A stretch of DNA of 64,000 nt from Candidatus Moraniibacteriota bacterium (GTDB lineage Bacteria > Patescibacteriota > Minisyncoccia > Moranbacterales > UBA1568). Numbering within the stretch: the stretch's first letter is position 1; each line of letters opens with the position of its first letter. The notes beneath the pieces were generated by a model, which worked only from the letters and a program-made list of their open reading frames with translations, ran no database searches and was not told the DNA's origin. Shown here one piece after another: positions 2,816-48,074 of the stretch. Location of the stretch: contig JAGOBM010000005.1 in NCBI GenBank assembly GCA_017983435.1, positions 28,469-92,468 of the forward strand, in the 5' to 3' direction. Position numbers and translations under genes: made by a program.

Positions 2816-3877
2816 TTGGAACAAGACATGACCACTATGCCGAAAGCCAAGATAGAGACAATCGTCGCCGCAGGGAAGCAAGCGCTTGAGGCCGTCGCCG
2901 ATGCGGCTGGTTTGGCTGTGTGGGAAACCGCCTATCTCGGCCGCAAGAGCGAGCTCAATGACGTGCTCAAAGGGCTCAAGGATCTCTCTCCCGAAGAGAA
3001 GCGTACCGTCGGTCCGGCAGCTCATGAGGCCAAGCAGGCGCTCATGGCGAGCTATACCGCGGCCGCTCTGCGCATCGAGCGCGAGAGTATCGATTGGGAG
3101 CGCGAGTGGATCGACGTCACGGCTCCGGGCGAGCGTCAACCGGCCGGCCATCTCCATCCGATTACGATTCTCGAGCATGAGATCGCCGATATCTTCGCTT
3201 CGCTCGGATTCACCGTCGAGGATGGTCCGGAGCTCGATACCGAGCACAACAACTTCGATTCGCTCAATTTTCCCAAAGATCATCCGGCACGCGATATGCA
3301 GGATACGTTTTGGGTGAAGTCTGAGAAGCGCTGGCAGCATACCTATATTCCGCGCACGCATACGTCGACGGTCCAGGTCCGCTATATGCAGGAGCACAAG
3401 CCGCCGGTGCGCATCATCGTGCCGGGACGCATCTTCCGCAACGAGGCGACCGATGCTTCGCATGAGCATACCTTCCATCAGTTCGAGTGCCTCATGGTCG
3501 ACGAGCCGGGCAAGGTGACCGTCGCGACCTTCAAGTATGTCGCCGAGACCTTCTTCAGCCGCTTCTTCGGCAAGAAAGTCGATATCCGCCTCCGGCCGAG
3601 CTTCTTCCCATTCACCGAGCCATCATTTGAATTCGATATTTCCTGCATCATCTGCGAGGCCAAGGGCTGCTCGGTCTGCAAGGGGACCGGCTGGCTCGAG
3701 ATCGGCGGCGCCGGTATGGTGAATCAGAAGGTCTTCGAAGCGGTCGGCTACAAGCGCGGTGCGTATCAGGGTTTCGCCTGGGGCTTCGGGCTGACACGGC
3801 TCGCCATGATGAAATACAAGATCGCGGATATCCGGCTCCTCATGAGCGGCGATCTCAGATTCTTGAAACAATTTTAA
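2816..3877 (+). CDS. pheS: Phenylalanyl-tRNA synthetase alpha subunit
   Basis: Class II aaRS core with FPKDHPARDMQDTFW and GFGLTRLAMMKY motifs characteristic of PheS. Confidence 0.95.
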   Translation: MEQDMTTMPKAKIETIVAAGKQALEAVADAAGLAVWETAYLGRKSELNDVLKGLKDLSPEEKRTVGPAAHEAKQALMASYTAAALRIERESIDWEREWIDVTAPGERQPAGHLHPITILEHEIADIFASLGFTVEDGPELDTEHNNFDSLNFPKDHPARDMQDTFWVKSEKRWQHTYIPRTHTSTVQVRYMQEHKPPVRIIVPGRIFRNEATDASHEHTFHQFECLMVDEPGKVTVATFKYVAETFFSRFFGKKVDIRLRPSFFPFTEPSFEFDISCIICEAKGCSVCKGTGWLEIGGAGMVNQKVFEAVGYKRGAYQGFAWGFGLTRLAMMKYKIADIRLLMSGDLRFLKQF

Positions 3878-3956
3878 GGGCAGATTTGTTAGTTTATAGT
3901 TTATTAGTTTTGTTAGAAAGAAGACTATAAGCTATAGACTCCATACACTATAGACT

Positions 3957-6326: not shown

Positions 6327-6389
6327 ATTTTCAGGGCAAAGAGTCGATATTTATGATAGAATGAGGCTTGTACAGTGAGTCTCTTTTTG

Positions 6390-6418
6390 TTGACTTTTAT
6401 ACAAAAAAGGTGTATAAT
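6390..6418 (+). promoter_or_regulatory. Sigma-70-type promoter for rnpB (TTGACT - 17 nt - TGTATAAT)
   Basis: Near-consensus -35/-10 with 17-nt spacer and TG extension, about 20 nt upstream of the RNase P RNA P1 helix. Confidence 0.7.
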
Positions 6419-6433
6419 ATGAAGTTCGTGGTT

Positions 6434-6819
6434 CTTTTCTAAGACAGGTTGGATTGCCGCGCTTTGGAGCCTTTTTTGGCTTCTTTGTGAGGAAAGTCCG
6501 GACACTCCCCATCGCTTGCGATGGAAGGGTAATGGGTAACTCCCATACGCCGCGAGGCGCGAGGTGCGAACAGAAACGGCCGATTCCGAAAGGGATCGGA
6601 TATCCGGGTGCAAATCCGGATAAGCCTCTCTGGTAACAGGGAGGGTGAAACGGCTAAATCCTTACCTGAGTGCAAGGTCGAGCTCCCGTTCATATTGCAG
6701 CTGCGATTGAGTGGGAGAGAACCGCACGGATCTGGCTGGCAACAGTCAGGCAAGAGAAATGGCAATCGTCCCGCTTCGGCGGGATACAGAATCCGGCTTA
6801 TAGGCCTGTCTTAGAAAAG
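6434..6819 (+). ncRNA. rnpB: RNase P RNA (bacterial type A)
   Basis: Contains universally conserved GAGGAAAGTCCGGAC (P4), GGGTGAAACGG, and ACAGAATCCGGCTTATAGG (P4 3' strand, cf. E. coli ACAGAACCCGGCUUAUCGG); 15-bp P1 helix cttttctaagacagg / cctgtcttagaaaag closes the molecule; about 386 nt. Confidence 0.9.
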
Positions 6820-6855
6820 CATCATCGAAACGAATCCTTGATCATCTCTGTCCGT

Positions 6856-8280
6856 ATGAAACGATCAGAAATATTCTTCAGCGCTCTGCAGCTCCCGGTG
6901 GATCTCCTCATGATCTCGCTCGCGGCGCTGAGCGCGTACTATGTCCGCAATATTCCGCAGATCCTCGCGCTTCGGCCGAAGCTCTACGATATCACGCTCT
7001 CCGGTTTCATGGAGGTGATTTTTTTCGTGGCGCCGATATTCGTCCTCATCTTCGCGCTCGAAGGACTCTACCAGATGCGGACCACGCGTCGCTTCTGGCA
7101 GGAAGCCTACCGGGTCTTCAAAGCGACCTCGCTCGTGCTTGTCATCGTCATCGTGGTGATCTTCCTCAAGCGCGAATGGTTCTCGTCCCGCTTCATCATC
7201 CTCGCGGGCTGGGGATTCACCGTCCTCTATATCACGCTCGGCCGCTATCTCATCGCCCGTGTCCAGCGCTATCACCTCCTCAAGAAGGGGACGGGTGTCC
7301 ACCGCGTGCTCCTCATCGGAACCAACGGCAAGATGCAGGCGATGAATCAGTACCTGACAGCGCATCGTGAGCTCGGCTACAAGATCGTCGCGCAGGTCTC
7401 CGGTGTCTCGCTCCATGAGATCAAAGCGATCCGGGCCGAACGGGGTATCGACGAGGTCATCGTCTGCGATCCGACCCTGACCGATGATGAACATGAGAAA
7501 CTCCTCGATTACTGTCAGATCAACAATATCGGCTATCGTTTCATCCCGACGACGCTCCAGGCGTCTCGTATCTCCATGCAGGTCGGCATCCTGAACGGCG
7601 AACCGATCATCGAGTACCAGCACACGCCGCTCGACGGCTGGGGCAAGGTCATGAAACGGGCCTTCGATCTCTTTGCCGGATCTATCCTGACCCTCATTGC
7701 GCTGCCGATCATGGGTATCATCGCGCTCCTCATCCGCATCGAAGACGGTACCGGACCGATCATCTACAAGAATGAGCGTGTCGGTCAGGACGGCAAGAAA
7801 TTCTATGTGTACAAGTTCCGGTATATGCTCTGGAAGCATTGTATCGCCAAGGAGAACCCGCATCTCGAGGCGGCGCTGGCTTTTGAGAAGCAGTTGATCG
7901 CCGAGCGCAATACGCGCGAAGGCGGCGTGCTGTACAAGATTAAGGATGACCCACGCAAGATGAAGGTCGGAGCCTTTATCGAACGTTATTCGCTCGATGA
8001 GCTGCCGCAGTTCTTCAATGTCCTCCGTGGAGAGATGAGTCTCGTGGGCCCGCGCCCGCATCAGCAGCGCGAGGTCGACAAATACAGCGAATACCATCGC
8101 CGGCTCCTCACCATCAAACCGGGCATCACCGGTATGGCACAGGTCTCCGGACGCTCTGATCTGCCGTTCGAAGACGAGTACCGCCTCGATGTCTACTATA
8201 TCGAGAACTGGTCGCTCTGGCTCGATATCATCCTCTGCCTCAAGACCTTCACCGCGCTCATCCGTCGTCGGAAAAATTAA
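6856..8280 (+). CDS. Undecaprenyl-phosphate sugar phosphotransferase (WbaP/WcaJ-like initiating glycosyltransferase)
   Basis: N-terminal multi-TM region, central linker, C-terminal bacterial sugar-transferase domain (KFRYM..., DELPQFFNVLRGEMSLVGPRP). Start moved from ORF-track 6670 to ATG 6856 because 6670-6819 is rnpB. Confidence 0.85.
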   Translation: MKRSEIFFSALQLPVDLLMISLAALSAYYVRNIPQILALRPKLYDITLSGFMEVIFFVAPIFVLIFALEGLYQMRTTRRFWQEAYRVFKATSLVLVIVIVVIFLKREWFSSRFIILAGWGFTVLYITLGRYLIARVQRYHLLKKGTGVHRVLLIGTNGKMQAMNQYLTAHRELGYKIVAQVSGVSLHEIKAIRAERGIDEVIVCDPTLTDDEHEKLLDYCQINNIGYRFIPTTLQASRISMQVGILNGEPIIEYQHTPLDGWGKVMKRAFDLFAGSILTLIALPIMGIIALLIRIEDGTGPIIYKNERVGQDGKKFYVYKFRYMLWKHCIAKENPHLEAALAFEKQLIAERNTREGGVLYKIKDDPRKMKVGAFIERYSLDELPQFFNVLRGEMSLVGPRPHQQREVDKYSEYHRRLLTIKPGITGMAQVSGRSDLPFEDEYRLDVYYIENWSLWLDIILCLKTFTALIRRRKN

Positions 8281-8716: not shown

Positions 8717-8841
8717 TCAAAAAAGCATAAGAAAATCCTGGGTCACGGGAAAGATTTTTTCGATGCACTACGCTTCCGAGCGTACAGCAAGAAAAAAATT
8801 TCTCGTGGCCTGGGATTTTTCCGAATATTTCTCCTGAGGAT

Positions 8842-8996
8842 ACGAAAGCAGATTTTTTCTGTGCCAATTGAAATCTCTTTCCAAGGGGGAAACAATCTTT
8901 TCCTCGCTATCGCCTCGGAAGTCTCGGGCAGCAGAAAAAATTGTTTCCCCCTTGGAAAGAGACCCTATTCGATGGCGCAGAAAAAAATCTACTTTC
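8842..8996 (+). repeat. Hairpin element copy A (conserved core cctcgctatcgcctcggaagtctcgggcagcag; internal 23-bp perfect inverted repeat 8874-8896 / 8940-8962; outer stem cgaaagcagatttttt / aaaaaatctactttcg)
   Basis: Direct sequence comparison with copy B at 48075-48161: the core and the outer stem base are shared, the stem extensions are unrelated but perfectly paired in both. Confidence 0.8.
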
Positions 8997-14469: not shown

Positions 14470-16971
14470 ATGCTCCAATATAGAATGGAGAAAACAAAAC
14501 ACCGAATGAACTATCTTTCTTTTTTTCTCTGGTACTACGGAGAGGGCGCTCGGAATGGTTTCGCAAATGTGCGCGATCTTCTTCGGGCTGTGTTGCATCG
14601 TTTCAATACGCGCGAGCTCCTCTCGACCTTCTTTTCGCCTTGGAAACGGGATGTCGAATACCGCACCTGGAGGGGATTCCATCCGATCAAGGGTCTGGTC
14701 CGGCTGATTGACAATCTCTTGTCGCGGTTCATGGGCATGCTGGTCCGGTTGCCGGTGATACTCTACGGACTTGGGTATTTCCTGGTAGCGCTGGTGTTTG
14801 GTACTGCTGTCTATCTCTGGTATCTTTTGTTGCCGGTAGCGGTCATGATCGGCTTCTATGGATTTTTGACGGGACAGAATCTGCTTTCGGAGACCGGGTG
14901 GATCATCAGCGGTCTCGGCGTGCTGTTTGGATTCGTCTGTTTTGTAGTCCGGACGCCGGAGCTTGAGGCGATCGGCAATATCGATTTCATGGCACTGCAG
15001 AAGAAGCCGTGGTTCGATCGGGTGCTCGCGCGGCTCGAGATGGATCGGAGCGATGTACCGGCGGATGCCCTGGTCAATGTCCGTGCATTCATGGCGCTGC
15101 TCAAGATGCGGAATATAGACGAGGATATGCTCGCGGCCGCGCTCGATATCGAACAGCGGGCTTTTGTCAAAAGCGCCCGGTCCAAGCGCTTCTGGCTGTG
15201 GGAGAATCTCGAAAAGAAAACACCGATCGGCAAGGGATGGCGCTATGGCTATACGCCGCGTCTCGACCGCTACTGCCTCGATCTCTCTCGATGGGATGCG
15301 ACGGAGTATCGCTCGATGGAGCTGGTCGGCCGCCAGGCGGAGTTCCGGGTAGCGACGGTCGTACTGGAGCGGCCGCAGCAGAACAATATCTTCCTCGTCG
15401 GCGAGCCGGGTATCGGCAAGAAGATGTTTATCCACTATCTCGCTCGGCTGATTCGGGAAAGCTCCTTCCCTCGGGGCGATGCTCTCAACGAGCTGCGTGT
15501 CCTGGTCTTCGATATCGGTGAAGCGATCGGCGAGGTGCTCAATCGCGGAGAGAACGTCGAAGACTTCCTCCGATCATTGTTTTTTGAAGCGGCTTCGGCG
15601 GGCAATGTTCTCCTGGTCATCGAGGATGTGGACCTCTTTCTTGGTACCGATCCTCAGAAAATCAACGTCGCGCATCTCTTGAATGAGTTTCTTAATCTTC
15701 CGACTTTCCGTTTCATCGGGACAGCGGTCGCAGCGCGCTATCATCTCTTGGCCAAGAAGGATGAGCAGATACTCAAGCTGTTTGAGACTATCTATCTGCG
15801 CCAGCCGAATATCGCTGAGAACCGCGAGATCCTCGTGCAGTTCTTCGCTCAATCGGAACGCCGGCAGGTGGTATTGACGCTCAAGGCGATCGAGACGATC
15901 ATCATGTCGTCGCGGCGCTACAATTGGGAGATGCCGTATCCGGAGCGAGTGCTCGATCTCGCGCAGCAGGTCATGATCTACTTCCGCAACCAGCCGGGCC
16001 GCTTCCTCACGGACCGGGTCGTCAACGAATACGTGAGCATGAAGACCGGCATGCCGATCGGCGAGGTGAGCGAGACCGAGCAGAAGAAACTGCTCAATCT
16101 TGAGACAGAGCTGCACGAGCGAGTCATCGGCCAGAATGAGGCCGTGAATCAGGTGTCGCAGGTCCTCCGCAAGGCGCGGGCTGGATTCCATGATCCAAAA
16201 CGGCCACTGGGGAGCTTCCTCTTCATGGGTCCGACGGGTGTCGGCAAGACGGAGACGGTCAAGGCATTGGCGGAATCGATTTTTGGTGATGAAGAGAAGA
16301 TGATCCGGCTCGATATGAGCGAGTTCCAGATGGCGAGTAGTCTGGAGCGGTTGCTCGGATCGCAGGCGGACGGGCTGCCCGGTATTCTGACCAAGGCCAT
16401 GAAGGAACACCCGTACTGCATCCTCCTCCTCGATGAGATCGAGAAAGCGTATCCCAAGATTCTTGATGTCTTCCTGCAGATCATCGATGAGGGTATGGTG
16501 ACCGATAGCTTCGGCGAGAAGATCAATTTCCGCAACGCCATCATCATCGCGACCTCGAACGCTGGGTCAACGCTTATCAAGGAGCTCTCCGAACAGGAGA
16601 TCCCGCTCAATGTCCTCCGCAAACAGGTGATCGATCAGGTGGTGCATGACGGTGTCTTCCGCATCGAATTTATGAACCGTTTTGACAATCTCATATTCTT
16701 CGAACCGCTCTCGGTACCGCAGCTCTCCGGTATCGCTGAGCTCAAACTCAAGAAATTCGTCGAGCGGATCAAACAGGACCGCAATATCGAAGTCGTCATC
16801 GCGCCGGGAGTGACGGAGCGCGTCGTCTCACGCGGCTATGAACCGCAGTTCGGAGCCCGATCGGTTAACCGGTTTATCATGGATCATATCGAAGATATCG
16901 TGGTGCGCAAGGTGATTTCCGGGGCAGTGCAGTCCGGAGGCACCGTCCTGATCGGTCCTGAGGATGTTTGA
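14470..16971 (+). CDS. Membrane-anchored two-domain Clp-like AAA+ ATPase (ClpA/ClpB/ClpC family, N-terminal TM domain, degenerate D1)
   Basis: D2: GPTGVGKT Walker A, LLLDEIEKA Walker B, VIGQNEAVNQV...RAGFHDPKRPLGSFLFMGPTGVGKTE signature of the Clp D2 domain. D1: GEPGIGKKM (Lys replaces Thr/Ser) and IEDVD. N-terminal about 180 aa with 3-4 TM helices. ATG 14470 chosen (AGGG RBS); the upstream in-frame start would overlap the divergent gene. Confidence 0.8.
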   Translation: MLQYRMEKTKHRMNYLSFFLWYYGEGARNGFANVRDLLRAVLHRFNTRELLSTFFSPWKRDVEYRTWRGFHPIKGLVRLIDNLLSRFMGMLVRLPVILYGLGYFLVALVFGTAVYLWYLLLPVAVMIGFYGFLTGQNLLSETGWIISGLGVLFGFVCFVVRTPELEAIGNIDFMALQKKPWFDRVLARLEMDRSDVPADALVNVRAFMALLKMRNIDEDMLAAALDIEQRAFVKSARSKRFWLWENLEKKTPIGKGWRYGYTPRLDRYCLDLSRWDATEYRSMELVGRQAEFRVATVVLERPQQNNIFLVGEPGIGKKMFIHYLARLIRESSFPRGDALNELRVLVFDIGEAIGEVLNRGENVEDFLRSLFFEAASAGNVLLVIEDVDLFLGTDPQKINVAHLLNEFLNLPTFRFIGTAVAARYHLLAKKDEQILKLFETIYLRQPNIAENREILVQFFAQSERRQVVLTLKAIETIIMSSRRYNWEMPYPERVLDLAQQVMIYFRNQPGRFLTDRVVNEYVSMKTGMPIGEVSETEQKKLLNLETELHERVIGQNEAVNQVSQVLRKARAGFHDPKRPLGSFLFMGPTGVGKTETVKALAESIFGDEEKMIRLDMSEFQMASSLERLLGSQADGLPGILTKAMKEHPYCILLLDEIEKAYPKILDVFLQIIDEGMVTDSFGEKINFRNAIIIATSNAGSTLIKELSEQEIPLNVLRKQVIDQVVHDGVFRIEFMNRFDNLIFFEPLSVPQLSGIAELKLKKFVERIKQDRNIEVVIAPGVTERVVSRGYEPQFGARSVNRFIMDHIEDIVVRKVISGAVQSGGTVLIGPEDV

Positions 16972-17100
16972 CATATGTTCTTAAAAGTGGTATAATTAAA
17001 AAAGAGTGCCATGGCGCCCCGGAAGTGTTTCCTGGGCGTTTTTTCTTTGGGTTTTGCTCGGAATGAGCTACACTGAAACCATAAAACATCAGGTGGCCCT

Positions 17101-37406: not shown

Positions 37407-38882
37407 ATGTGCCAGATTATGCGCCAAGATATCGTAGAGACGAAACAGGAAAAGCTCGAGAAGCTCACGGCGGCTTTTGGGACGGCGTATCCGGAGCAGT
37501 GCGGACGCACGCATATGACGGCTCTAGCGCTCGCGCATTTCGACACGCTGCTCTCGGAGGGTACTGCGGTGACGGTGGCTGGCCGGGTCAAATCGCTCCG
37601 CATGATGGGCAAGATCGGTTTCGCACATATCGAGGATGGGAGCGGCAAGATGCAGATCTTCCTGTCCGAGCAGACGACTGGTCTCGACGCGATCAGGCTG
37701 TTCGCTGATACGATAGAGATCGGGGATTTCGTCGAGGCGACGGGAAAAGTTTTTTTGACCAAGAAGGATGAGAAGACGATCGACGTCGCATCCTGGCGAG
37801 TACTCGGCAAATCCCTGCGTCCGATCCCGACCGAGCATTTCGGGCTCCAGGATGAGGAAGAGCGCCTCCGTCGTCGGTATCTCGATTTGCTCTCCAATCC
37901 GGAGACGCGCGATATCTTCATGAAGAAGAATCGTTTCTGGCAGACGGTGCGGACTTTCCTCTCTGAGCGCGGCTATCTCGAGGTGCAGACGCCGGTGCTC
38001 GAGCATATCCCGGGCGGCGCCGAAGCAGAACCCTTCATCACGCATCACAATGCGCTCGATCAGGATTTCTATCTCCGTATCTCGCTTGAGCTCGCGCTGA
38101 AGCGACTGCTCGTCGGCGGCTATGAGCGGGTCTTCGAGATCGGCCGGGTCTTCCGCAATGAGGGTATCGACCGAGAGCACCTGCAGGAATTCGATCATAT
38201 GGAATGGTATGCAGCGTATATGGATATGGAGACGGGCATGCAGCTCGTCGAGGATATGTATCGGGCTATCGTCCGTTCCGTGGCTGGTGAGTCGCTCACG
38301 ACGGAATACGAGGGCCAGACGATCGATTGGTCCAAGCCGTTTCCGCGCATCGATTATTTCGAGGAGCTCGCGAAGGAGACGGGAGTCGATCTCTCGGGAG
38401 AAGTATCCGTCGAGACGCTCCGTGCCGAGCTCGAGCAGCGCGGTATCAAATATGACAAGACCGCTGGCAAGGGTCGCCTGATTGACACACTCTACAAGAA
38501 GACCGTCCGTCAGCGTCTCATCCAGCCGTGTTTCCTCGTGGGGCATCCACTCGAGGTTTCACCGCTGGCCAAGATCGATCCGAAAAATCCGAACCGCGCG
38601 CTTCGTTTCCAGCCAATCGCCTGCAAGAGCGAGCTCGGCAACGGTTTCGCGGAGCTTAACGATCCAGCGGATCAGCGCCGCCGTTTCGAAGAGCAGATGA
38701 AGCTGCGTGAAGCGGGGGATGCCGAAGGCATGATGCTCGACGAGGATTTCCTCGAAGCGCTGGAATACGGCATGCCGCCGGCCTGCGGGTTCGGCATGAG
38801 CGAACGCTTCTTCGCGATGCTGCTCGACAAATCCGTCCGCGAGACAGTGACGTTTCCGCCGATGAAAACAAACAACCATTAA
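37407..38882 (+). CDS. lysS: Lysyl-tRNA synthetase (class II)
   Basis: N-terminal OB anticodon-binding domain; motifs FYLRISLELALKRLLVGGYERVFEIGRVFRNEG and HMEWYAAY. Confidence 0.95.
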   Translation: MCQIMRQDIVETKQEKLEKLTAAFGTAYPEQCGRTHMTALALAHFDTLLSEGTAVTVAGRVKSLRMMGKIGFAHIEDGSGKMQIFLSEQTTGLDAIRLFADTIEIGDFVEATGKVFLTKKDEKTIDVASWRVLGKSLRPIPTEHFGLQDEEERLRRRYLDLLSNPETRDIFMKKNRFWQTVRTFLSERGYLEVQTPVLEHIPGGAEAEPFITHHNALDQDFYLRISLELALKRLLVGGYERVFEIGRVFRNEGIDREHLQEFDHMEWYAAYMDMETGMQLVEDMYRAIVRSVAGESLTTEYEGQTIDWSKPFPRIDYFEELAKETGVDLSGEVSVETLRAELEQRGIKYDKTAGKGRLIDTLYKKTVRQRLIQPCFLVGHPLEVSPLAKIDPKNPNRALRFQPIACKSELGNGFAELNDPADQRRRFEEQMKLREAGDAEGMMLDEDFLEALEYGMPPACGFGMSERFFAMLLDKSVRETVTFPPMKTNNH

Positions 38883-39002
38883 AACAGTTCACAGTTAACA
38901 ATTAACAAAAAACAGTTGGCAAGAAGCGGGATTGGACAGATAGACATATTTTTTGTAGGATACCTCTTATCCATTGTTTGTCAGCTGAAAAGGTCGCAGA
39001 GT

Positions 39003-39023
39003 TCAGTTTCCGCCAGAGGCGGA
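39003..39023 (+). repeat. 21-bp direct repeat tcagtttccgccagaggcgga (copy 1, upstream of tRNA-Val); contains palindrome ccgccagaggcgg
   Basis: Identical 21-mer again at 39121-39141; inverted partial copy tccgcctctggcgga at 39219-39233. Confidence 0.8.
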
Positions 39024-39041
39024 TAAAGGTTAGAACAGAGA

Positions 39042-39115
39042 GGGCAACTAGCTCAGTTGGTTAGAGCACAGCATTCACATTGCTGGGGTCACTGGTTCGA
39101 ATCCAGTGTTGCCCA
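39042..39115 (+). tRNA. tRNA-Val (anticodon CAC)
   Basis: Manual cloverleaf: acceptor gggcaac/gttgccc, D-arm gctc-agttggttag-agc, anticodon stem cagca/tgctg with loop ttCACat, T-arm actgg-ttcgaat-ccagt; CCA not encoded. Confidence 0.85.
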
Positions 39116-39120
39116 CAACA

Positions 39121-39141
39121 TCAGTTTCCGCCAGAGGCGGA
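39121..39141 (+). repeat. 21-bp direct repeat copy 2, immediately downstream of tRNA-Val
   Basis: Exact match to 39003-39023. Confidence 0.8.
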
Positions 39142-39148
39142 CCCGCCT

Positions 39149-39253
39149 CGGGCGGGGGTTAGAGCACGGTATTCACACCTGCCCGACTCTGGAGGGTTGC
39201 TGGGGTCACTGGTTCCCTGTCCGCCTCTGGCGGAGAATCCAGTGTTGCCCACA
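39149..39253 (+). pseudogene. 5'-truncated degenerate tRNA-Val copy (D-loop to 3' end) with two insertions of about 20 nt
   Basis: ggttagagcac[g]g[t]attcaca + 20-nt insert + tgctggggtcactggtt + 21-nt insert (contains ccgcctctggcgg) + aatccagtgttgccca aligns to tRNA-Val positions 19-73; preceded by palindrome cccgcctcgggcggg. Confidence 0.6.
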
Positions 39254-39266
39254 GAAGTTTTCAATG

Positions 39267-39299
39267 AAGACGCTCCCGTTCCGGGGCGTCTTTGTTTGT
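39267..39299 (+). terminator. Intrinsic terminator (agacgctcccgttccggggcgtctttgtttg)
   Basis: GC stem followed by T-run, downstream of the tRNA-Val / pseudo-tRNA pair. Confidence 0.65.
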
Positions 39300-39373
39300 C
39301 TAATTGACAGGGGTGTCTGGATGGGGTACCGTATCTCCGTTACCAGTTCTTTTTTGAGAAGGGAGTATCCATC

Positions 39374-39835
39374 ATGGACACAGTCTGTCCTGAAACATTT
39401 TTCCGTCAGCTGGCCGTATTGACTGACAAACTGCTCGCTTTGAGCGATGAGCAGATCGCTGCTGCCGAACCGGGGCAGCTCTTGGACGAAGAGTACGATG
39501 TCTGTCTCGGCAAGGCTGATCCCGCGCTCCGTCGTCTCTACACGCTGCTCTCGATAACCCGGTCTTCTCAGTCGTATCTCCCGTTCGATTTTTTCATCGC
39601 GGATTATCCCGAGGAAAAACAGCATGAGATCTGTCGGGAGATATGCCTATCGGTGGTCGAGATTGAGACCTTGAATTGGCTCTTCCGCTCGGAAGTTGTC
39701 TGGGCTTTTCCGGATTTTCGTTCTGCTGGATTACTGGAAAAGATCGGCATGCGGAAAGGGTGGATAGTGGCCGTTCCGAAGCCCGAACCGTTTCCTCGTC
39801 GGAAAGTGGAGCGGGTCCGAATTCTAGAAGACTAA
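39374..39835 (+). CDS. Hypothetical protein (153 aa)
   Basis: ORF with AAGGGAG RBS; no recognisable domain; strong terminator hairpin follows at about 39845-39890. Confidence 0.5.
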   Translation: MDTVCPETFFRQLAVLTDKLLALSDEQIAAAEPGQLLDEEYDVCLGKADPALRRLYTLLSITRSSQSYLPFDFFIADYPEEKQHEICREICLSVVEIETLNWLFRSEVVWAFPDFRSAGLLEKIGMRKGWIVAVPKPEPFPRRKVERVRILED

Positions 39836-39983
39836 GTTTTTTGCGCCCTGACGGGAAATCTCGTCGGGGCGCTTTGCTTTTTTTTCGGTTAGGCGATAAG
39901 CTATCAGGTGTAATTGCTCGCCTCCCCGGTTTTTTTGTAGGCTAATGAAGCTAAAAAGCTAAGCAGCTAAAAGCTTGTTCTGT

Positions 39984-41312
39984 ATGCTCGATATCCGATT
40001 TGTCCGTGAAAACGAGGCCCTGATCCGCGAAGCGATCACGCTCAAGAAGAGCGATTTTGATCTGGATGCTTTCCTCTTGCTTGATCAGGAGCGGGTTGCT
40101 CTGCTCCAGGAATTCGAGGAGCTTAAGTCGCTCAAGAACGATATCAATGATCTGATTGCCCAGGCCAAGACGCCGGAAGAGCGGACCGAGATCATTGCGA
40201 AGGGCAAGGAGATCAAGCAGAAGACGGACGAGCTCGAGCCTCGTTTCCGTGAGACGACCGAACGCTTCGAAAGACTCTCGGCATTGGTGCCGAATGTCGT
40301 TTCATCCGATACGCCGCGAGGCAAGGATGATTCGGAGAATGTCGAAGTATTCCGCTCGGAAGAGCCGAAGCCGCTCGGCTTCGCTCCGCAGGATCATATC
40401 GCTCTCGGTACATCGCTCGATATCATCGATTTCGATCGGGGATCCAAGGTGGCCGGCTATCGTGGCTACTACCTCAAGAACGAGGGCGCGCTGCTCGTGA
40501 TGGGTCTCATGGCCTACGCGTTGCAGAAGATGGCGAGCAAAGGATTTCTCCCGATGATTCCTCCGACACTCGTGAAACCGTTCCCGCTGTTCGGATCAGG
40601 GTATTTCAAGGGGACGGAATACGATCCGGAAGTCGATGAGATCTATCGGCTGGCGGCGGCGGAGAAGGAGGCTGATGGTGCGATTAACCGTGAAGACCGG
40701 TTTCTCGTCGGGACCGCTGAACCATCGCTCCTCGCTTATCATGCCGGCGAAGTGCTCGACGGCGCTGCGCTTCCGATGCGGCTCGCTGGATTCAGTCAGT
40801 GCTACCGGAGCGAAATCGGCTCCTATGGCCGCGACACCAAAGGTATGTATCGGGTGCATGAATTCTTTAAGGTCGAGCAGGTCGTGCTCTGCGCGGCGGA
40901 TATGCGAGAGGCGGATGCGCTCCAGACCGAGATGATGGGGATTTCTGAGGAAATGCATCGCGAGCTCGGCATCCCGTATCGCAAGCTGCAGATCTGCACC
41001 GGAGATCTCGGAGCGGGCAAGTATCGCCAGTTCGATCTCGAAGCCTGGATGCCAGGACTCGATCGCTGGGGCGAGACCGGCTCGTCATCCAATTTCCTTG
41101 ATTGGCAATCCCGCCGTCTCAATGTGAAATATACCGATCCTGAAACTGGCGAGCGCAAGCATGTCTATATGCTCAACAACACCGCATTGCCGAGCCCGCG
41201 CATCCTTATCGCTATCCTTGAGAATTACCAGCAGGCTGACAGATCGGTCATGATTCCCGAGGTGCTACAGCCGTATGTCGGCAAGGATCGGATAGTCCCG
41301 AAAGCTGCGTAG
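39984..41312 (+). CDS. serS: Seryl-tRNA synthetase
   Basis: N-terminal coiled-coil arm MLDIRFVRENEA..., class II core motifs (YRSEIGSYGRDTKGMYRVHEF, GTALP); ATG 39984 preferred over TTG 39975. Confidence 0.95.
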   Translation: MLDIRFVRENEALIREAITLKKSDFDLDAFLLLDQERVALLQEFEELKSLKNDINDLIAQAKTPEERTEIIAKGKEIKQKTDELEPRFRETTERFERLSALVPNVVSSDTPRGKDDSENVEVFRSEEPKPLGFAPQDHIALGTSLDIIDFDRGSKVAGYRGYYLKNEGALLVMGLMAYALQKMASKGFLPMIPPTLVKPFPLFGSGYFKGTEYDPEVDEIYRLAAAEKEADGAINREDRFLVGTAEPSLLAYHAGEVLDGAALPMRLAGFSQCYRSEIGSYGRDTKGMYRVHEFFKVEQVVLCAADMREADALQTEMMGISEEMHRELGIPYRKLQICTGDLGAGKYRQFDLEAWMPGLDRWGETGSSSNFLDWQSRRLNVKYTDPETGERKHVYMLNNTALPSPRILIAILENYQQADRSVMIPEVLQPYVGKDRIVPKAA

Positions 41313-41333
41313 AAGTTGATCTCTATTTGAGTA

Positions 41334-41382
41334 AGAAAAAAAGCCGCTCTCCGATTTCCGGTGAGCGGCTGATATTTTTTTA
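41334..41382. terminator. Bidirectional terminator (aaaaaaagccgctc...gagcggctgatattttttt)
   Basis: 8-bp GC stem flanked by A-run and T-run between convergent serS and the minus-strand ORF. Confidence 0.75.
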
Positions 41383-41389
41383 TCTTTGC

Positions 41390-41953
41390 CTATCTGACGA
41401 TGTCCCTGCGCATCGTCCAGCCGAAACCATCATCGGTCGGGGCGAGCACATACTGCTCATCGCCTTTGAGCGAGGCGAAGTGTATGCGTTCGGCGGGCAC
41501 TGAGGTGCGGAGACAGATGCCGTGCCGCAGGCTGAGCTCCCGAAGCTCATCAGCGAAAGCGATAGCTTTGCGCATCGGATGATCTTCCGGATAGGGGAGA
41601 TCGGGCCAAAGGATCGGAGCGGTACAGGAGAAATGCCGGATCAGCGAGAGGGAGATTTCGCGTACCGATAGGAGCTCGCTTTCAGTGATGGGGCGGATGA
41701 TGTGTTCGACAGCGGTTTCGAGGAATGGTGCCGCAAAAACCTGTTCATTGATCGGACCGCGGGCATCATGGATAGAGCCATCGGGACGTCTGATGCCGGC
41801 ATGACGGATGACGCTATCAAGAATCAATCCGACCATCGGCCAACCGGTATTGCGGTGGAGCGCGATGGCAAGCTCGTAACAGGGGCCGTCCAGTCGAGGA
41901 ATGAGCCGATGGCGGTCCTCACCGGTGAGGAGCTGTACGTGGTTGGGTAGCAT
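41390..41953 (-). CDS. Hypothetical protein (187 aa)
   Basis: Minus-strand ORF with AGGAGGT RBS 6 nt upstream of the ATG; no recognisable domain. Confidence 0.5.
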   Translation of the reverse strand: MLPNHVQLLTGEDRHRLIPRLDGPCYELAIALHRNTGWPMVGLILDSVIRHAGIRRPDGSIHDARGPINEQVFAAPFLETAVEHIIRPITESELLSVREISLSLIRHFSCTAPILWPDLPYPEDHPMRKAIAFADELRELSLRHGICLRTSVPAERIHFASLKGDEQYVLAPTDDGFGWTMRRDIVR

Positions 41954-42008
41954 GAATACCTCCTATGGATTGGGAAGGGACAAAAAAGTGTTTGTATTTG
42001 CAATAGAG

Positions 42009-42081
42009 TGGGTGCGGAGGGGATCGAACCCACGACCGTTGGCTTAAAAGGCCACTGCTCTACCGACTGAGCTACGCACCC
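42009..42081 (-). tRNA. tRNA-Lys (anticodon UUU)
   Basis: Reverse complement folds as acceptor gggtgcg/cgcaccc, D-arm gctc-agtcggtag-agc, anticodon stem with loop cTTTTaa, T-arm gtggg-ttcgatc-ccctc (one U-U mismatch); CCA not encoded. Confidence 0.8.
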
Positions 42082-42137
42082 GAATGTGTTGGATCACTGA
42101 AATAACGATACTGACCGACTGCCAGCCCAAGGCTGGT

Positions 42138-42162
42138 CCGCCTCGGGCGGAAGCTACGCACC
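42138..42162 (-). repeat. Palindrome ccgcctcgggcgg abutting a 12-nt duplicate (agctacgcaccc) of the tRNA-Lys 5' end
   Basis: 12-mer identical to 42070-42081 (the tRNA 5' acceptor and D-stem start); the same palindrome occurs at 39145-39157 next to the truncated tRNA-Val copy. Confidence 0.7.
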
Positions 42163-42219
42163 CGTCTGTGTCAAAAACAAGAGAATTCTACCTGCTTTAG
42201 ACATATCCGTCAACAACAG

Positions 42220-42234
42220 ACCGGAGCTGAGTAT
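42220..42234 (+). promoter_or_regulatory. Extended -10 promoter (TGcTATACT) for the BNR lipoprotein gene
   Basis: TGnTATACT element 22 nt upstream of ATG 42257. Confidence 0.45.
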
Positions 42235-42256
42235 GCTATACTGAGGGAAAATCAAG

Positions 42257-43327
42257 ATGCTTATGCTCAAGAAAATATTCGTGGTTTCGTGCGCGTGTCT
42301 TCTGCTCTCCGGTTGCGGTGCTCCTCAAGCGACGGTCGAGAAGCCGCCGGTGCCAGGAAGTATCTACAAGTCCTTCGATGCCGGACGGACATTCGTACCG
42401 AAGATTACAGTGGATGAGAAGCGCCGTATTACGTCGGCTGATGTGCTGACTTGGGCTTTCCACCCGACTGATCCGCAGACGATGTATGTCGGCACCGCTT
42501 CCGATGGTATCTTTCGGACGACGGATGGAGCGGAACACTGGGAGCCGATGACATTTCCCCCGGAACGCGTCTATGGTCTGGCGGTCGATCCGACGAATCC
42601 GGATCGGATATTCGCGACGGGTGTCTATGAGAAGGTGGCCAAGGTCTATCGGACTGAGGACGCCGGAGCTAACTGGAAGGAAGTCTATGTCGAACCGGGA
42701 CCAGGCACGGTCATCTCGTCGTTCGCGATGCATCCGACTGACCCTCGTATCCTCTATGCGGCGACCGACAAAGGAGTCGTCATCAAGAGCAGCGATGGTG
42801 GGGAGCAGTGGAAAAATGTCTATGATGCAGCCGGTCCGGTCACCAAGATACTGGTCGGATCCAAAATACCGGAAGCAGTCTCACTCCTGGTATTCCAGAA
42901 GAACATCGTTTTTTCCGGTGACGGGGGTGCGACCTGGGCTGATCCGGCCAAGGGGGTCATCGCTTCCACTACTGATACCGCTGTTACGCCAGGCGCTATC
43001 GTCTCGATGGCTGCTGATCCGAGCACCCCGAGCACGCTCTATGCCGGAGGGACGGGCGGCATGTATCGGAGCCTGGATTTCGGCAAGACTTGGAGCGCGG
43101 TAGAGGTCATCGAGAGCGCCAAACAATATCCGATCCGAGCGATTGCTATCAATCCTCGCAATCCGAGCGAGATCGTCTTTGCAGCTGGATCGGTCTTCTA
43201 TCGATCGACGGACGGAGGGGAGCGCTGGTCGGTGACGGAGCTCGGCATCAAGAAGGGTGTCAGCGCTATCGTGTACGAACCGGGAAATTCTGATATCATA
43301 TATTTCGGTATACGGAGCTTTAAGTAA
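42257..43327 (+). CDS. Lipoprotein with BNR/Asp-box repeats (beta-propeller, Ycf48/sialidase-like fold)
   Basis: Lipobox LLSGC; six S/TxDxGxxW repeats (TTDGAEHW, TEDAGANW, SSDGGEQW, SGDGGATW, SLDFGKTW, STDGGERW). Confidence 0.7.
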   Translation: MLMLKKIFVVSCACLLLSGCGAPQATVEKPPVPGSIYKSFDAGRTFVPKITVDEKRRITSADVLTWAFHPTDPQTMYVGTASDGIFRTTDGAEHWEPMTFPPERVYGLAVDPTNPDRIFATGVYEKVAKVYRTEDAGANWKEVYVEPGPGTVISSFAMHPTDPRILYAATDKGVVIKSSDGGEQWKNVYDAAGPVTKILVGSKIPEAVSLLVFQKNIVFSGDGGATWADPAKGVIASTTDTAVTPGAIVSMAADPSTPSTLYAGGTGGMYRSLDFGKTWSAVEVIESAKQYPIRAIAINPRNPSEIVFAAGSVFYRSTDGGERWSVTELGIKKGVSAIVYEPGNSDIIYFGIRSFK

Positions 43328-43340
43328 TACAGGAACCACT

Positions 43341-43898
43341 ATGGTCAAAGAACTGATACAGGCGGGACAGGAGAAATTCGAGCAAGCAGTCGAGCATTTC
43401 GTCGAAGAAGCCGCCAAACTGCGGACCGGCCGTGCCAACCCGGCTCTCTTGGAAGGCATACTCGTGGATTATTACGGGACACGGACCCCGATCAAGCAGA
43501 TCGCCAATGTGACGATCCCGGAAGCCAGGCAGATATTGATACAGCCGTGGGACAAGGGGGCGATGCAGCCGATCGAAACCGCGATCCGCGAGTCCGATCT
43601 CGGCTTCAACCCAGGCAATGATGGCAATGTCATCCGTGTCACGCTGCCGCAGCTGACTGAAGATCGCCGGCGTGAGCTCGTGAAATCGCTGAATAGCCGA
43701 GCTGAAGACTCGCGTATCAGCATCCGAGCGACCCGGGAAGAGATCTGGAAGGAGATACAGGAGCTCGAGAAGTCCGGTGATATCGGCGAAGATGATAAGT
43801 TTGCCGGCAAGGATGATCTGCAGAAAGCTGTCGATGAATACAATGCAAAAATCGAAGATCTGCGCGAGAAGAAAGAAAAGGAAATCATGACCGTCTAA
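43341..43898 (+). CDS. frr: Ribosome recycling factor
   Basis: 185 aa; conserved RRF sequence (LRTGRANPALLEGILVDYYG..., NPGNDGNVIRVTLPQLTEDRR); start trimmed to Met 43341. Confidence 0.9.
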   Translation: MVKELIQAGQEKFEQAVEHFVEEAAKLRTGRANPALLEGILVDYYGTRTPIKQIANVTIPEARQILIQPWDKGAMQPIETAIRESDLGFNPGNDGNVIRVTLPQLTEDRRRELVKSLNSRAEDSRISIRATREEIWKEIQELEKSGDIGEDDKFAGKDDLQKAVDEYNAKIEDLREKKEKEIMTV

Positions 43899-43978
43899 CG
43901 AGATTCTGGATTTTCGAGTTTGGATTTTGGAATAAATGCCTTCTCAAAAATCAAGAATCGATAATCAAAAATCATACT

Positions 43979-45133
43979 ATGCTGACCATTCTCATCTTTG
44001 CCGCCATTCTCGGAATCCTCGTCTTCGTCCATGAATTCGGGCATTTCATCGTCGCTCGCCGCAATGGCATCAAGGCGGATGAGTTCGGCTTCGGCTTTCC
44101 TCCGCGCTTGGTCGGTGTCGTCAAGAATGATCAGACCGGCAAGTACGATATCATCTGGGGTGATCGCGATGTCGCGAGCCCGCATACGATCTACTCGCTC
44201 AATTGGATTCCGCTTGGCGGTTTCGTCAAGATCAAGGGCGAAGAGGGCGTGCATACGCATGATGCTGATAGCTTTGCCAACAAGTCCGTCTGGATCCGCG
44301 TCAAGGTGTTGGCAGCCGGTGTGGTGATGAATTTTCTCTTGGCCTGGGTCCTGATCAGCCTCGTCTATATCTTCGGCCTGCCACAGCCGATCAGTCCGGA
44401 AGAGCGGGGCATGTATCCGGATGAGAAAGTCCAGATTCTCGAAGTGAAGCCGGGGACGCCGGCGGCTGAGATGAAACTCCGTCCGCTCGATCAGATTATT
44501 ATGATCGATGGCATGCCGGTCTCGACGACCGAAGCGACGACCGAAGCGATTGCAGCTCGGAAGGGACAGGAAGTTGCATTTGTCGTCCGGCGCGGCGACA
44601 GCGAGCTTATCTTGCGCGGGACGCCTCGCACAGAGTATCCGAAGACCGAAGGGGCACTCGGTATCTCGCTCGCCGAGACCGCACTCATTACCTATCCGTG
44701 GTATGAAGCCATCGTCGAGGGAGCCAAGACGACCGTGACGGTGAGCGGCACTATCCTGCTCTATCTGGGCAAGATGATCGCTTCAATCTTCGGTGGCGCT
44801 GAAAAAGTGGCGCTCGATGTGACGGGCCCGGTCGGCATCGTCTACCTGACGAAGCAGATGACAGAGATGGGGTTCTCTTACCTGCTCTGGTTCGCGGCGC
44901 TCCTCTCTATCAATCTCGGCATCTTCAATATCCTGCCGATCCCGGCGCTCGACGGTGGTCGTATCTTCTTTGTCCTCATCGAGAAGATCAAGGGGAGTCC
45001 GGTCTCACAATTCGTCGAGAACCGTATTCATCAGGTCGGCTTCATGCTGCTCTTGTTCCTGATGCTGCTCGTGACGATACGCGACTTCTCACAGTTCCAA
45101 ATCTTGGATAAGCTCAAAGGATTCTTCGTATAG
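43979..45133 (+). CDS. rseP: RseP-family site-2 protease (M50 zinc metalloprotease with PDZ domain)
   Basis: HEFGHFIVAR HExxH motif in TM1, PDZ domain, C-terminal LDGG motif region. Confidence 0.85.
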   Translation: MLTILIFAAILGILVFVHEFGHFIVARRNGIKADEFGFGFPPRLVGVVKNDQTGKYDIIWGDRDVASPHTIYSLNWIPLGGFVKIKGEEGVHTHDADSFANKSVWIRVKVLAAGVVMNFLLAWVLISLVYIFGLPQPISPEERGMYPDEKVQILEVKPGTPAAEMKLRPLDQIIMIDGMPVSTTEATTEAIAARKGQEVAFVVRRGDSELILRGTPRTEYPKTEGALGISLAETALITYPWYEAIVEGAKTTVTVSGTILLYLGKMIASIFGGAEKVALDVTGPVGIVYLTKQMTEMGFSYLLWFAALLSINLGIFNILPIPALDGGRIFFVLIEKIKGSPVSQFVENRIHQVGFMLLLFLMLLVTIRDFSQFQILDKLKGFFV

Positions 45134-45160
45134 TCGACTGGTTTCGGCCAGAAGAAGGTG

Positions 45161-45192
45161 AAAAACCCGCAGAGGAAGCGGGTTTTTGCTTT
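45161..45192 (+). terminator. Intrinsic terminator (aaaaacccgcagaggaagcgggtttttgc)
   Basis: 5-bp GC stem flanked by A-run and T-run after rseP. Confidence 0.7.
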
Positions 45193-45209
45193 GTTCTCCT
45201 GCTTGACTA

Positions 45210-45238
45210 TTGACAAAAGAGCTAAAATAAGCTATTAT
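45210..45238 (+). promoter_or_regulatory. Sigma-70 promoter TTGACA - 17 nt - TATTAT
   Basis: Consensus -35 and near-consensus -10 with a 17-nt spacer; -35 context cTTGACAAAAGAG shared with the 48250 promoter. Confidence 0.65.
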
Positions 45239-45273
45239 AGGCGGTTGAGAGTTGCATAAGTATTGGAGGGAAA

Positions 45274-45915
45274 ATGTCTATGAAAAAGAGCTTGTTCAAA
45301 CTTTTTGTATCTTCGCTGCCGAAGGGAATCCTGATCGGACTCTTTGTGTCGCTCGCGGGTATCGGTGTCTTGTTCCTCTCGCAGGATCGGTATCGTTCGA
45401 GCGCGGATTTCTTGGTCACTTCGACGCAAGGCGGACAGGATTACTATACCGCGACCCGCTCAGCCGAGTATATGAGCCGGGTGCTGTCGGAGGTGCTCTA
45501 TAGCGAGCGCTTCATGAACGCCATCATCGAGACCGGCAAGGTGAACGATGCCTATTTTCCCCGGGACAAGAAGGACCGTCTCGAAGTGTGGGCACAGTCG
45601 TTGTCCGTCAAGCGCAATTCTGAAATCGGTTTTGTAAGCGTCTCGGTGACCGGCAAGAATGATCGTGACGTCTATCGTCTCTCTCAGGCGCTGGTCCAGG
45701 TGCTCGATACGAACAGCGCGGTCGTCTTCGGTGATGACGCGAGCAATATCAAGATCCGTCTGCTGTCAGGACCGATTCTCGAACGCAACCCGAGCGCATC
45801 GCAATTCATGACGCTGCTCATCGCGAGCGTCGCCCTCGGCGTCTTCGGTATCTTTGCCGCCCGTCTGATCCGGCAGGAGTTCGCGCTGCCGCTCATGCAC
45901 GATCCGCGTCAATAA
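45274..45915 (+). CDS. Wzz-like polysaccharide co-polymerase family protein (second paralog)
   Basis: N-terminal TM, SQDRYRSSADFLV region, C-terminal TM (LLIASVALGVFGIFAARLI); alternative start ATG 45280 has better RBS spacing. Confidence 0.5.
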   Translation: MSMKKSLFKLFVSSLPKGILIGLFVSLAGIGVLFLSQDRYRSSADFLVTSTQGGQDYYTATRSAEYMSRVLSEVLYSERFMNAIIETGKVNDAYFPRDKKDRLEVWAQSLSVKRNSEIGFVSVSVTGKNDRDVYRLSQALVQVLDTNSAVVFGDDASNIKIRLLSGPILERNPSASQFMTLLIASVALGVFGIFAARLIRQEFALPLMHDPRQ

Positions 45916-46117
45916 TCGAGGATCTCGAGCTCTTCCTTCCGCGCGAGGGGAGAGCCGAGATGTCCGATTCGAGTGTTCCTTGATAATTCGGCATCAGAAA
46001 GGAGTTGTCTTATGAGACAGTTCAGGCTTTGGATTACCCATCGCTGGGCTGCCTCATGTGGTAGCCCGCCTTGGTTCATTGAGGTTTTTCAAATTTCAAT
46101 CTGCGAAGGAGGTTATC

Positions 46118-47875
46118 ATGGCAGATCTTAATGTACGTTCTGGGATTCACCGGAAAGAATCCAGTCCTTTGGATGGATTCGAGCAGAGACGTGGTCTCAA
46201 GCCGAGAACTCTGGTTCTCGGTCTGGTCCTGATTGTCGTCTCGCTTTTTGCCTGCTATCGCTTCGGCGTATTCGATGAGACCGTCTCGGCGCAAGCCCCG
46301 GTTGCCGTCGCGCAGGTAGTAACACCGGTTCCCGTCAGTGTAGCGCCGCCGCCATCGCCGTTGGTAGTGGCCAAAGAGCCCGCCTCAAGCGTTGCTCCGT
46401 CGCCGACCTTGATCGAGAAAAGCTATGTTGTCCAGTCGGGTGATACGCTCTCTCGCAAGTTCCCGAAAGATTGGAAAGCGGTCTGCGAGACGAATAGTCT
46501 CAAGGATTGCAGCCTGATCCGTGAAGGACGAGAGCTCAAACTGCCGGGAACGGTGGAAACGAGCCAGGTCGTCCGGAAGCCTGTCGAAAGACTGGCCGAC
46601 GGATCGCTGCCGATAGCCCGTCTCAATATCGACCCGTATCGCCCGTATGCCAGCGCCGCCAATGATCGCAAGATCCTGGCAGCCCAAGGCTATTCCGCCG
46701 CAGAGATCGAGGAATTCTCGACGCTCGTGGCGCAGGGTGGTTGTGTCGAAGAAATGTTTGCCAAGGGTACGCAGTTTCCGTGGATGTCGCATGGCAATGC
46801 CAAGGTCGTCAAAAGCCTGGTCGCCACGTGGCAGAAACCGGAAGCCGGTCGGGTGTGTCAGCTTTCGAGCGGTCGCACCATCGTCATACTCGAAAAGTGT
46901 GGCAATCTGACCGAAACAGCGGCTCGTCCCATCGTCGTCCCGAAGGAACCGGAACCTCAAGCAGAACCGGAACCTGAACCTGAAGATGCTCCGGTACTCC
47001 CGGTGCATGCCAAGGAGGGCGACGTCATCCCGTGCAATCTGCAGGCCGGTGCCGGTGTCTACCAGAATCGCGTCTACCAAGGCGCCTGGGGCTACGGTGA
47101 GGGTCTCTGCTATATCTTCAAGAACGGCGAGTGGCAACACGGACCGGGCTTCTATGCTATGGCAGGCGGAGGCGAATCGCGCATGTCTACCTATTCCAAC
47201 AAGGAAACAGGCTATGGTCTGCAGTACGGCATCCAGCGCAATTGGCTGGGTGATCGCGGTCCGGCGACCTTCGAATTGAAGGGACGTCTGCTCCGTGACC
47301 ATATGTGGGGATCGAACAAAGAAGGCTACTGGGTTGACCAGAAAGGCTACAAGTTCGGCCTCTACGGGTCGTATTACGAGCGTCATGGCGAGAATCTGGT
47401 CGGCGCAATCGGTGAATACTGGCAGAGCTTCGGTCAGACGGTCAAATCGTCTTGGTCGGGCCAACAAGTCCAGAATCGCGGCAGCGTGGGCGTCTATGGC
47501 GTCTACGAACACCCGCTTACCGAAGACAATGATTGGCGTCTGCGCTGGATCGCCGGGGTGAACTACACGAATTGGGATGAACAATCCTGGTTCCGCGTCA
47601 CTCCCGAGTTCCGCTACAAAGAATGGCTGATGTTCGGGCCGCAACTCTCGGTCCCGATCGGAATCAGCAGTCTCAATCAACCCTTGACCTCCGGTGATCT
47701 GACCACGGTCGGCGCGTTCGTTCGTGTCGAGCTGGGGACAGAAATCCGCAAGGCTGATGCCGAAAACAGGGAAGAGCAAGTCGAGTATGTACCGGCGGCT
47801 GAGGTAGCAATACCTATCCATCCGGTGACACTTATCGAAGCTCCGCCCGCAGAAGCTGTTGCGCCGGCTGAATAA
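46118..47875 (+). CDS. LysM-domain membrane protein with large uncharacterised C-terminal domain
   Basis: Cytoplasmic N-terminus, one TM, P/V/A linker, LysM-like YVVQSGDTLSRKF...LKLPG, then a 400-aa G/Y/W-rich domain; start trimmed to Met 46118 (GAAGGAGG RBS). Confidence 0.6.
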   Translation: MADLNVRSGIHRKESSPLDGFEQRRGLKPRTLVLGLVLIVVSLFACYRFGVFDETVSAQAPVAVAQVVTPVPVSVAPPPSPLVVAKEPASSVAPSPTLIEKSYVVQSGDTLSRKFPKDWKAVCETNSLKDCSLIREGRELKLPGTVETSQVVRKPVERLADGSLPIARLNIDPYRPYASAANDRKILAAQGYSAAEIEEFSTLVAQGGCVEEMFAKGTQFPWMSHGNAKVVKSLVATWQKPEAGRVCQLSSGRTIVILEKCGNLTETAARPIVVPKEPEPQAEPEPEPEDAPVLPVHAKEGDVIPCNLQAGAGVYQNRVYQGAWGYGEGLCYIFKNGEWQHGPGFYAMAGGGESRMSTYSNKETGYGLQYGIQRNWLGDRGPATFELKGRLLRDHMWGSNKEGYWVDQKGYKFGLYGSYYERHGENLVGAIGEYWQSFGQTVKSSWSGQQVQNRGSVGVYGVYEHPLTEDNDWRLRWIAGVNYTNWDEQSWFRVTPEFRYKEWLMFGPQLSVPIGISSLNQPLTSGDLTTVGAFVRVELGTEIRKADAENREEQVEYVPAAEVAIPIHPVTLIEAPPAEAVAPAE

Positions 47876-48000
47876 CGCCGGTGCGACAGGAATCGTCTGA
47901 TCAATCTCAGGTCTCTAAAAAGGGTATCCGCCAACGTGAAAACGCGCGAGATATCGGCCAGCTCTGAGAGAATGATTCCGCTTCGCAAGATGCAGATTTG

Positions 48001-48045: not shown

Positions 48046-48074
48046 GGTAAGGATTTCTGTGCAGGAGTTGATTC

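Follow-up and report, generated by a model that had tools for sequence, protein, structure and literature searches.

The 64-kb stretch of Candidatus Moraniibacteriota DNA analysed here (the window) carries members of a dispersed, non-coding palindromic repeat family in which a near-invariant apical module of ~31 nt, the sequence-conserved part, is borne on a freely varying stem. Repeats measure 75–155 nt across the family, a single unit being a 75–90-nt hairpin. With confidence slightly above even, the family is read as REP/BIME-like, its tip being recognised in single-stranded form. To our knowledge, almost nothing is known about the repeat DNA and non-coding elements of the small, streamlined genomes of CPR/Patescibacteria; a literature search found no hairpin or REP-like repeat described for CPR bacteria, and this hairpin family of Moranbacteria-type (CPR) genomes is apparently undescribed so far.

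The preliminary description had reported two copies, at 8842-8996 (copy A) and 48075-48161 (copy B), and both are present as described, with a common 25-nt core (GCTATCGCCTCGGAAGTCTCGGGCA) that matches the window exactly twice (8906-8930 and 48106-48130), whereas two matches were not reached in any of 100 shuffles. They are accompanied by two members that had been missed, copy C, which is diverged and inverted (8731-8821), and a truncated half copy (48167-48203). Orientation is given by the "element strand," which is minus for A and B and plus for C. Copy A (−) is a composite made up of an outer stem (8842-8859/8979-8996) that resembles the stem of B, an imperfect middle stem, and a complete inner element (8874-8962; apical module 8898-8938) that scores 72 bits at 8882-8954 with covariance model R1. 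Just ~7 nt of the module base are left on each side of the outer "loop," and copy A gives the appearance of an element that sits within the tip of a second one. Its internal inverted repeat, earlier given as a perfect 23 bp, is real and longer than that, the repeat finder returning 29 nt at 97% (8874-8902/8934-8962). Copy B (−) is a full element (apical module 48098-48138; 77.5 bits with R1) with a stem of 31 nt at 94% (48072-48102/48134-48164), and on the minus strand G·U pairs carry the pairing out to ~48070-48166; it is identical in L041-L044 and L046. Copy C (+), likewise a full element (73.9 bits with R1), lies 20 nt from A in the opposite orientation, its stem flanked by an A-tract and a U-tract. 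Its apical module (8756-8796, +) reads UUUUUUCGAUGCAC-UACGCU-UCCG-AGCGUA-CAGCAAGAAAAAAA and contains the spaced motif GATGC-N6-CTTCCGAG-N6-GCAAG, which recurs in A and B on their minus strand; orthologues or paralogues of C are found at L022, L005, L020, L027, and L029. The half copy (48167-48203, −), directly to the right of B, breaks off in the loop between CCCGAG and ACUUCC; alignment identifies it as the right half (+ strand) of an element whose complete form is found in L029 (10212-10284), a BLAST block begins at 48167, and it was recognised solely through that comparison. Covariance-model and half-core pattern searches of the window gave nothing beyond A, B, and C.

Read along the element strand, a unit begins with the variable stem (20–35 bp), U5–7, C(U), a GA bulge, UGC, and a 2x2 internal loop (CC or AC opposite CA or UA); a six-position helix, a UCCG tetraloop, and the return strand follow, and then GCA/G, A(G/A)G, A5–7, and the stem again. 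The folding strand accordingly reads ...UUUUUC(U)GAUGC-C-helix-UCCG-helix-CAGCAAG-AAAAA.... The inner helix differs by subfamily, as UACGCU/AGCGUA, UUUGCU/AGCAAA, or UAUGCU/AGCAUA; in the A/B subfamily (GAGACU/AGGCGA), three of the six positions are conserved purine-purine mismatches, and in the distant copy L047 the C-G beside the closing pair of the tetraloop is changed to U-A. The tip had been singled out as the conserved part, and it is near-invariant across the copies of the family. The companion claim, that the stems are non-homologous, is only partly true: the stems of the family share a degenerate consensus, (CC)AGGCUGCGARAAGAnUUUUUUC, and only the inner 23–29-bp stem of copy A is truly additional. 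The 11-bp outward extension of B, taken earlier for unrelated sequence, instead shows homology with the L002 and L025 stems.

That A and B belong to a family, as had been proposed, is borne out by copies in other genomes and in metagenomes. A degenerate pattern, run against GTDB genomes, metagenomes, and viral contigs, found seven true loci in the first and eight in the second, and no copy in the viral contigs; more copies surfaced as spurious small ORFs and near PilX-like genes. About 25 further copies lie outside the window, all in Moranbacteria/Patescibacteria MAGs and metagenomes. The GTDB loci are labelled Moraniibacteriota, "Patescibacteria group," or "uncultured Bdellovibrionales," the last probably a mislabel because the genes of that genome match Moranbacteria proteins. 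The window's own genome is represented by several assemblies (GCA_017983395.1, GCA_020047555.1, and others), which hold identical copies; the locus is also present in GCA_964580285.1 and GCA_009612895.1. On inspection, 12 loci of the first genome scan were unrelated (11 copies of another conserved sequence from Clostridia-class MAGs, and L014), and metagenome locus L026 was discarded.

The earlier statement that the element has no named counterpart agrees with Rfam, which holds no matching family: at gathering thresholds, the sole matches, RNase P and two tRNAs, lie in other parts of the window, and E-value mode added just sub-threshold matches to generic miRNA hairpins. Known motifs, namely the hammerhead (CUGAUGA), SRP domain IV, the K-turn, and attC, were compared by eye and set aside because their conserved positions are not matched: copy A has CUGCUGC, A9 is lacking, no 3-nt bulge is followed by G·A/A·G, and R/L boxes are absent. 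The RNase P RNA is of bacterial class A (6441-6816; 134.8 bits) and is overlapped by the ORF call for the downstream sugar transferase (6670-8280), for which gene calls in L033 point to a start at ~6856. In a related MAG, a small protein of the 23S_rRNA_IVP/bAvd-like type (DGR accessory-type) is encoded between glycosyltransferase genes (L049 19200-19529).

Copies A and B fold far better than their shuffles (z = −8.6 to −11). Folding energies of the two strands are −92.7 kcal/mol (−) vs. −84.6 (+) for copy A and −50.8 kcal/mol (+) vs. −40 (−) for copy C. When 24 copies were aligned to model R1, standard pairs occupied 91.3% of cells, compared with 75.4% in column shuffles and 48–57% when the partners were slid, and double-sided changes occurred at 15 of the 26 pairs. 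The stems thus change but stay paired, as the preliminary description had held, and covariation is seen in the inner helix as well as in the stems. The pairing is also asymmetric between strands. Of the transition mismatches in the stems of 17 copies, 33 form G·U on the element strand and 3 on the opposite strand (binomial p = 2e-7, the copies not being fully independent; an earlier count gave 34 vs. 7), and almost all copies show the bias, among them L024, whose element runs antisense to the gene that hosts it. Since any DNA palindrome would pair anyway, and a strand bias is not so expected of it, the bias is the informative sign: G·U on one strand only indicates that the hairpin of that strand, as RNA or single-stranded DNA, is what is kept.

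These properties bear directly on two other explanations. An ordinary dead MITE or palindrome remnant, decaying neutrally and with the likeness of A and B due to recent duplication, would account for the existence of truncated and degenerate copies and for the unpaired middle stem of A in L022; it is nevertheless highly improbable and largely refuted, since conservation across genomes with ~50% protein identity lies in the centre rather than at the termini, double changes preserve pairing, wobble pairs are strongly strand-biased, and conserved terminal inverted repeats and target-site duplications were not seen. Conservation is lowest in the columns of the outer stem ends, and the earlier argument against a decaying MITE with conserved terminal inverted repeats stands. 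The second explanation is a functional structured RNA, either an sRNA or a cis hairpin, the tip of which would bind a host protein (e.g., for processing, stability, or localisation) and copies of which would be needed at several loci. Confinement of G·U wobble to one strand would be accounted for in this way, as would a UNCG-type tip on a covarying helix, the conserved purine-purine mismatches of the A/B subtype, conservation of the core in situ (even inside an ORF), recurrence upstream of pilin-like genes, and the retention of one copy or another at particular loci. This explanation, the main rival of the REP/BIME-like reading, is somewhat unlikely.

The most direct comparison is with L029 (ERZ2227954), a 70.5-kb contig that is collinear with window positions 37923-55252 at ~92.5% identity. 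At the B locus the flanks are ~99% identical and the element region is wholly different: L029 has a plus-strand copy with another stem followed by a second copy on the minus strand, and in the window B (−) is accompanied by no more than the right half of the latter. The interval from serS to a tRNA gene contains one C-type element plus a half copy in L029; the window has at this place a 187-aa ORF (41390-41953, −) that has no Pfam match and is absent from L029. The A/C locus is similarly changeable. Its 86%-identical orthologue, L022, has the loop of A unchanged and the outer stem kept, and there the inner stem is different yet paired; L005 has a C-type copy at the position that A occupies in the window; and synteny with L037 stops at the left edge of C. 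Alternating-orientation arrays of the form C> <A are present in the window, L022, L020/21, L027, and P0131, and arrays of the form C> <A C> and E1> <D are present in P0124 and L029, respectively. Six independent Logan contigs (L034-L036 and L038-L040) end 118–194 nt past the upstream gene, inside or just after C, and contigs 4 and 6 of MAG CAZOKB01 (the start of L005 and the end of L051) overlap as far as the element loop and then diverge, which points to a contribution of the repeat, or of population heterogeneity at it, to MAG fragmentation. L029 also differs from the window at a second, unrelated long hairpin or MITE-like element (52825-53023; 35-nt arms, 91% complementary, with a 129-nt spacer), the surrounding segment (52570-53076) being replaced by other DNA; this second element has an 80%-identical copy in L002 at 3760-3890.

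Such quick gain, loss, flipping, and truncation among close relatives is the behaviour of REP/BIME or RPE repeats rather than of a promoter-linked regulator. A structured RNA as opposed to a mobile repeat, the former being one of the candidates of the preliminary description, is therefore not supported, as copies are replaced, flipped, truncated, and nested between relatives with ~99%-identical flanks. Near-identical strains swap copies, orientation, and number and leave the neighbouring promoter unchanged, and repeat DNA typically shows half and nested copies. The break points of two half copies and of the insertion nested in A fall within a few nt of the CCCGAG/ACUUCCGAG junction in the loop; from these few cases, the tip seems to be a site of breakage or exchange. 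Neither a clean pair of filled and empty sites nor a target-site duplication was seen in these comparisons; transposition may underlie the polymorphisms, which could also arise by ectopic recombination or gene conversion.

Copies occupy diverse genomic contexts, including the intervals between EF-P and SSB and between serS and a tRNA gene, sites after xerC/D-like genes, and the interior of a Wzy_C gene. The link to promoters of secreted proteins that had been suggested for A and B is weak: in L029 neither the promoter nor the gene downstream of B has changed despite different copies and orientations there, which indicates that the elements are not tied to downstream promoters, and other copies lie in unrelated contexts. 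The PilX-like gene and the 128-aa gene are each preceded by some element in all relatives seen. Elements precede PilX-like pilin genes in the window and L022, in L005 and L051, and in L047, and are absent at two other pilin loci; the association with pilins is unproven, and the PilX-like cases may be orthologous loci. A search for a promoter on the element strand gave nothing consistent or convincing upstream, and many copies are antisense to both neighbouring genes, which, together with the lack of an Rfam match, also weighs against a structured RNA. Antisense-located copies include B, L002, L025, and L024. The window itself has a 37-nt repeat family of canonical sigma-70 promoters (TTGACT/TTGACA-N17-TATAAT-like) at 6389-6425, 16967-17003, 48820-48856, and 48250-48278, one of them directly upstream of the RNase P RNA.

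It is very unlikely that the elements are orientation-specific transcription terminators or insulators, hairpins that stop or pause RNA polymerase between genes. C-type copies do have the A-tract and U-tract flanks of bidirectional intrinsic terminators, and convergent C> <A pairs lie between convergent genes in L020 and L027. In A/B-type copies, however, the stem is not directly followed by the U-tract found in C-type copies, and the upstream genes already have canonical terminators of their own between their ends and the elements, so that the elements are not the terminators of these genes; moreover, sense placement inside an essential-looking ORF would be deleterious, and a conserved 31-nt tip is unnecessary for termination. 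Hairpins of another kind are found in the window directly 3′ of the tRNA genes at 39042-39115 (+) and 42009-42081 (−), where GC-rich double hairpins (39123-39156 and 42122-42155), inverted copies of one another and 85% complementary, are probably tRNA terminators.

The copies that lie within the Wzy_C (O-antigen-ligase) gene show that the element can be tolerated in coding sequence. It is in frame in L004, L010, L013, L028, and L003, where it is read as GTQKQLFLMPFASEQTAKKKFVFAFQ, and it occupies the same place in the opposite orientation in L024 and in proteins P0019-P0021, where it is read as EGRKRSFSLLFARKQRASEKAVFAPRS; among the Wzy_C proteins, the sense orientation is found in P0001-P0018 and the antisense orientation in P0019-P0021. 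The genes of L004, L010, L013, L028, and L024 remain open across the element. Most Wzy_C homologues are without the segment, and the site is a hypervariable loop that joins membrane helices 1 and 2. The occurrence of the same element in either orientation here is a further point against a structured RNA. In sense copies the core is ~100% conserved and the neighbouring codons diverge, and the core is kept, also after inversion, in host proteins that are only ~53–78% identical; host-level function or continual conversion fits this conservation better than pure selfishness. The inverted copy has the same subfamily-specific inner helix, which suggests that the loop was flipped in place by exchange between the arms.

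Intragenic residence is the exception, since no other real host protein was found: when a profile of the encoded peptide in one reading frame was compared with 1.84 billion representatives, Wzy_C (P0018) was the sole real host, and the remaining matches were spurious ORFs over intergenic copies or unrelated repeats. A search of a word-indexed protein database with the peptide profile returned 3 spurious small ORFs only and missed the known Wzy_C hosts, and so says little about intragenic copies. The window has a Wzy_C gene of its own at 49924-51408. In homologues P0022-P0120 the loop often contains other repeat-like peptides (e.g., NQESRIKNQ and DLRFMIDEW...ILKSKIIH), which could be translated palindromic inserts of other kinds.

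A scheme for the REP/BIME-like reading can be drawn from these observations. A trans-acting protein would recognise the ~31-nt apical module on single-stranded nucleic acid, either DNA or RNA, and the long stem, which would extrude and present the tip, would need only to pair, leaving its sequence to drift with compensation. Copies would pile up beside or inside one another, in alternating arrays and at intergenic "safe" sites between terminators and promoters; recombination or breakage at the loop would then produce flips, half copies, and synteny breaks. A Pfam scan of 36 window ORFs lying before 57.5 kb returned housekeeping functions only and no transposase, Y1/HUH protein, or recombinase; Xer-like genes were seen beside the L020/L027 pair only.

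In a more specific form, which is unlikely, the tip would be the site of a dedicated Moranbacteria enzyme or RNA-binding protein, and the family would represent either a new hairpin-tip-directed type of mobilisation or recombination or a domesticated, orientation-specific RNA signal tolerated in an ORF. If tip-directed, the factor would act on the hairpin of one strand (single-stranded DNA or RNA), and breaks and insertions would centre on the same loop junction.

Turnover of these repeats at ~92% strain identity, together with the synteny and assembly breaks, makes the family a practical marker of genome plasticity and a likely source of MAG fragmentation. The combination of an invariant tip, a free stem, and folding of a single strand suggests a specific partner protein, which may be findable by phylogenetic profiling. 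The in-frame Wzy_C copy, present in both orientations, is a natural test of tolerance in coding sequence.

Among the known families of small bacterial repeats, Correia/NEMIS and ERIC elements are small, non-autonomous hairpin repeats that are found in intergenic regions near promoters and occasionally within genes (PMC2759123, PMC3184786). Like these, the Moranbacteria elements are small repeats that form long RNA or DNA hairpins; unlike these, which have conserved terminal inverted repeats and target-site duplications, their termini are least conserved, and no direct repeats flank B, L002, L025, or L006. Rickettsia palindromic elements (RPE), of ~100–150 bp, sit in frame in genes, and their translation adds a peptide to a loop that tolerates it (PMC10969869). 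The Wzy_C copy resembles them as a palindromic repeat of ~100 nt that is read through in frame in a conserved gene. There is no sequence relation between the two families, the Moranbacteria element is found at one site in either orientation, and RPE have many unrelated host genes, whereas one host family, Wzy_C, was found here.

The closest resemblance is to REP/BIME/REPIN sequences, the repetitive extragenic palindromes of proteobacteria, in which a unit is a GC-rich, imperfect palindrome of 20–40 nt and mobilisation is carried out by RAYT Y1 transposases. REP units are characterised by a conserved GTAG or CGTC head (PMC3733652). In the Moranbacteria family the conserved part is a structured tip rather than such a head plus stem; no conserved tetranucleotide is present at the 5′ ends of the stems, GTAG being confined to the A and B stems, and no RAYT was found among the window ORFs scanned. 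The units are also two to four times longer and rich in AU-tracts, belong to a CPR host, and include one intragenic copy. In other respects the two systems behave alike: both are dispersed extragenic hairpins with one relevant strand, both show concerted conservation, synteny breaks, and assembly breaks, and the alternation of C-type and A/B-type copies in arrays parallels that of the Y and Z units of BIMEs.
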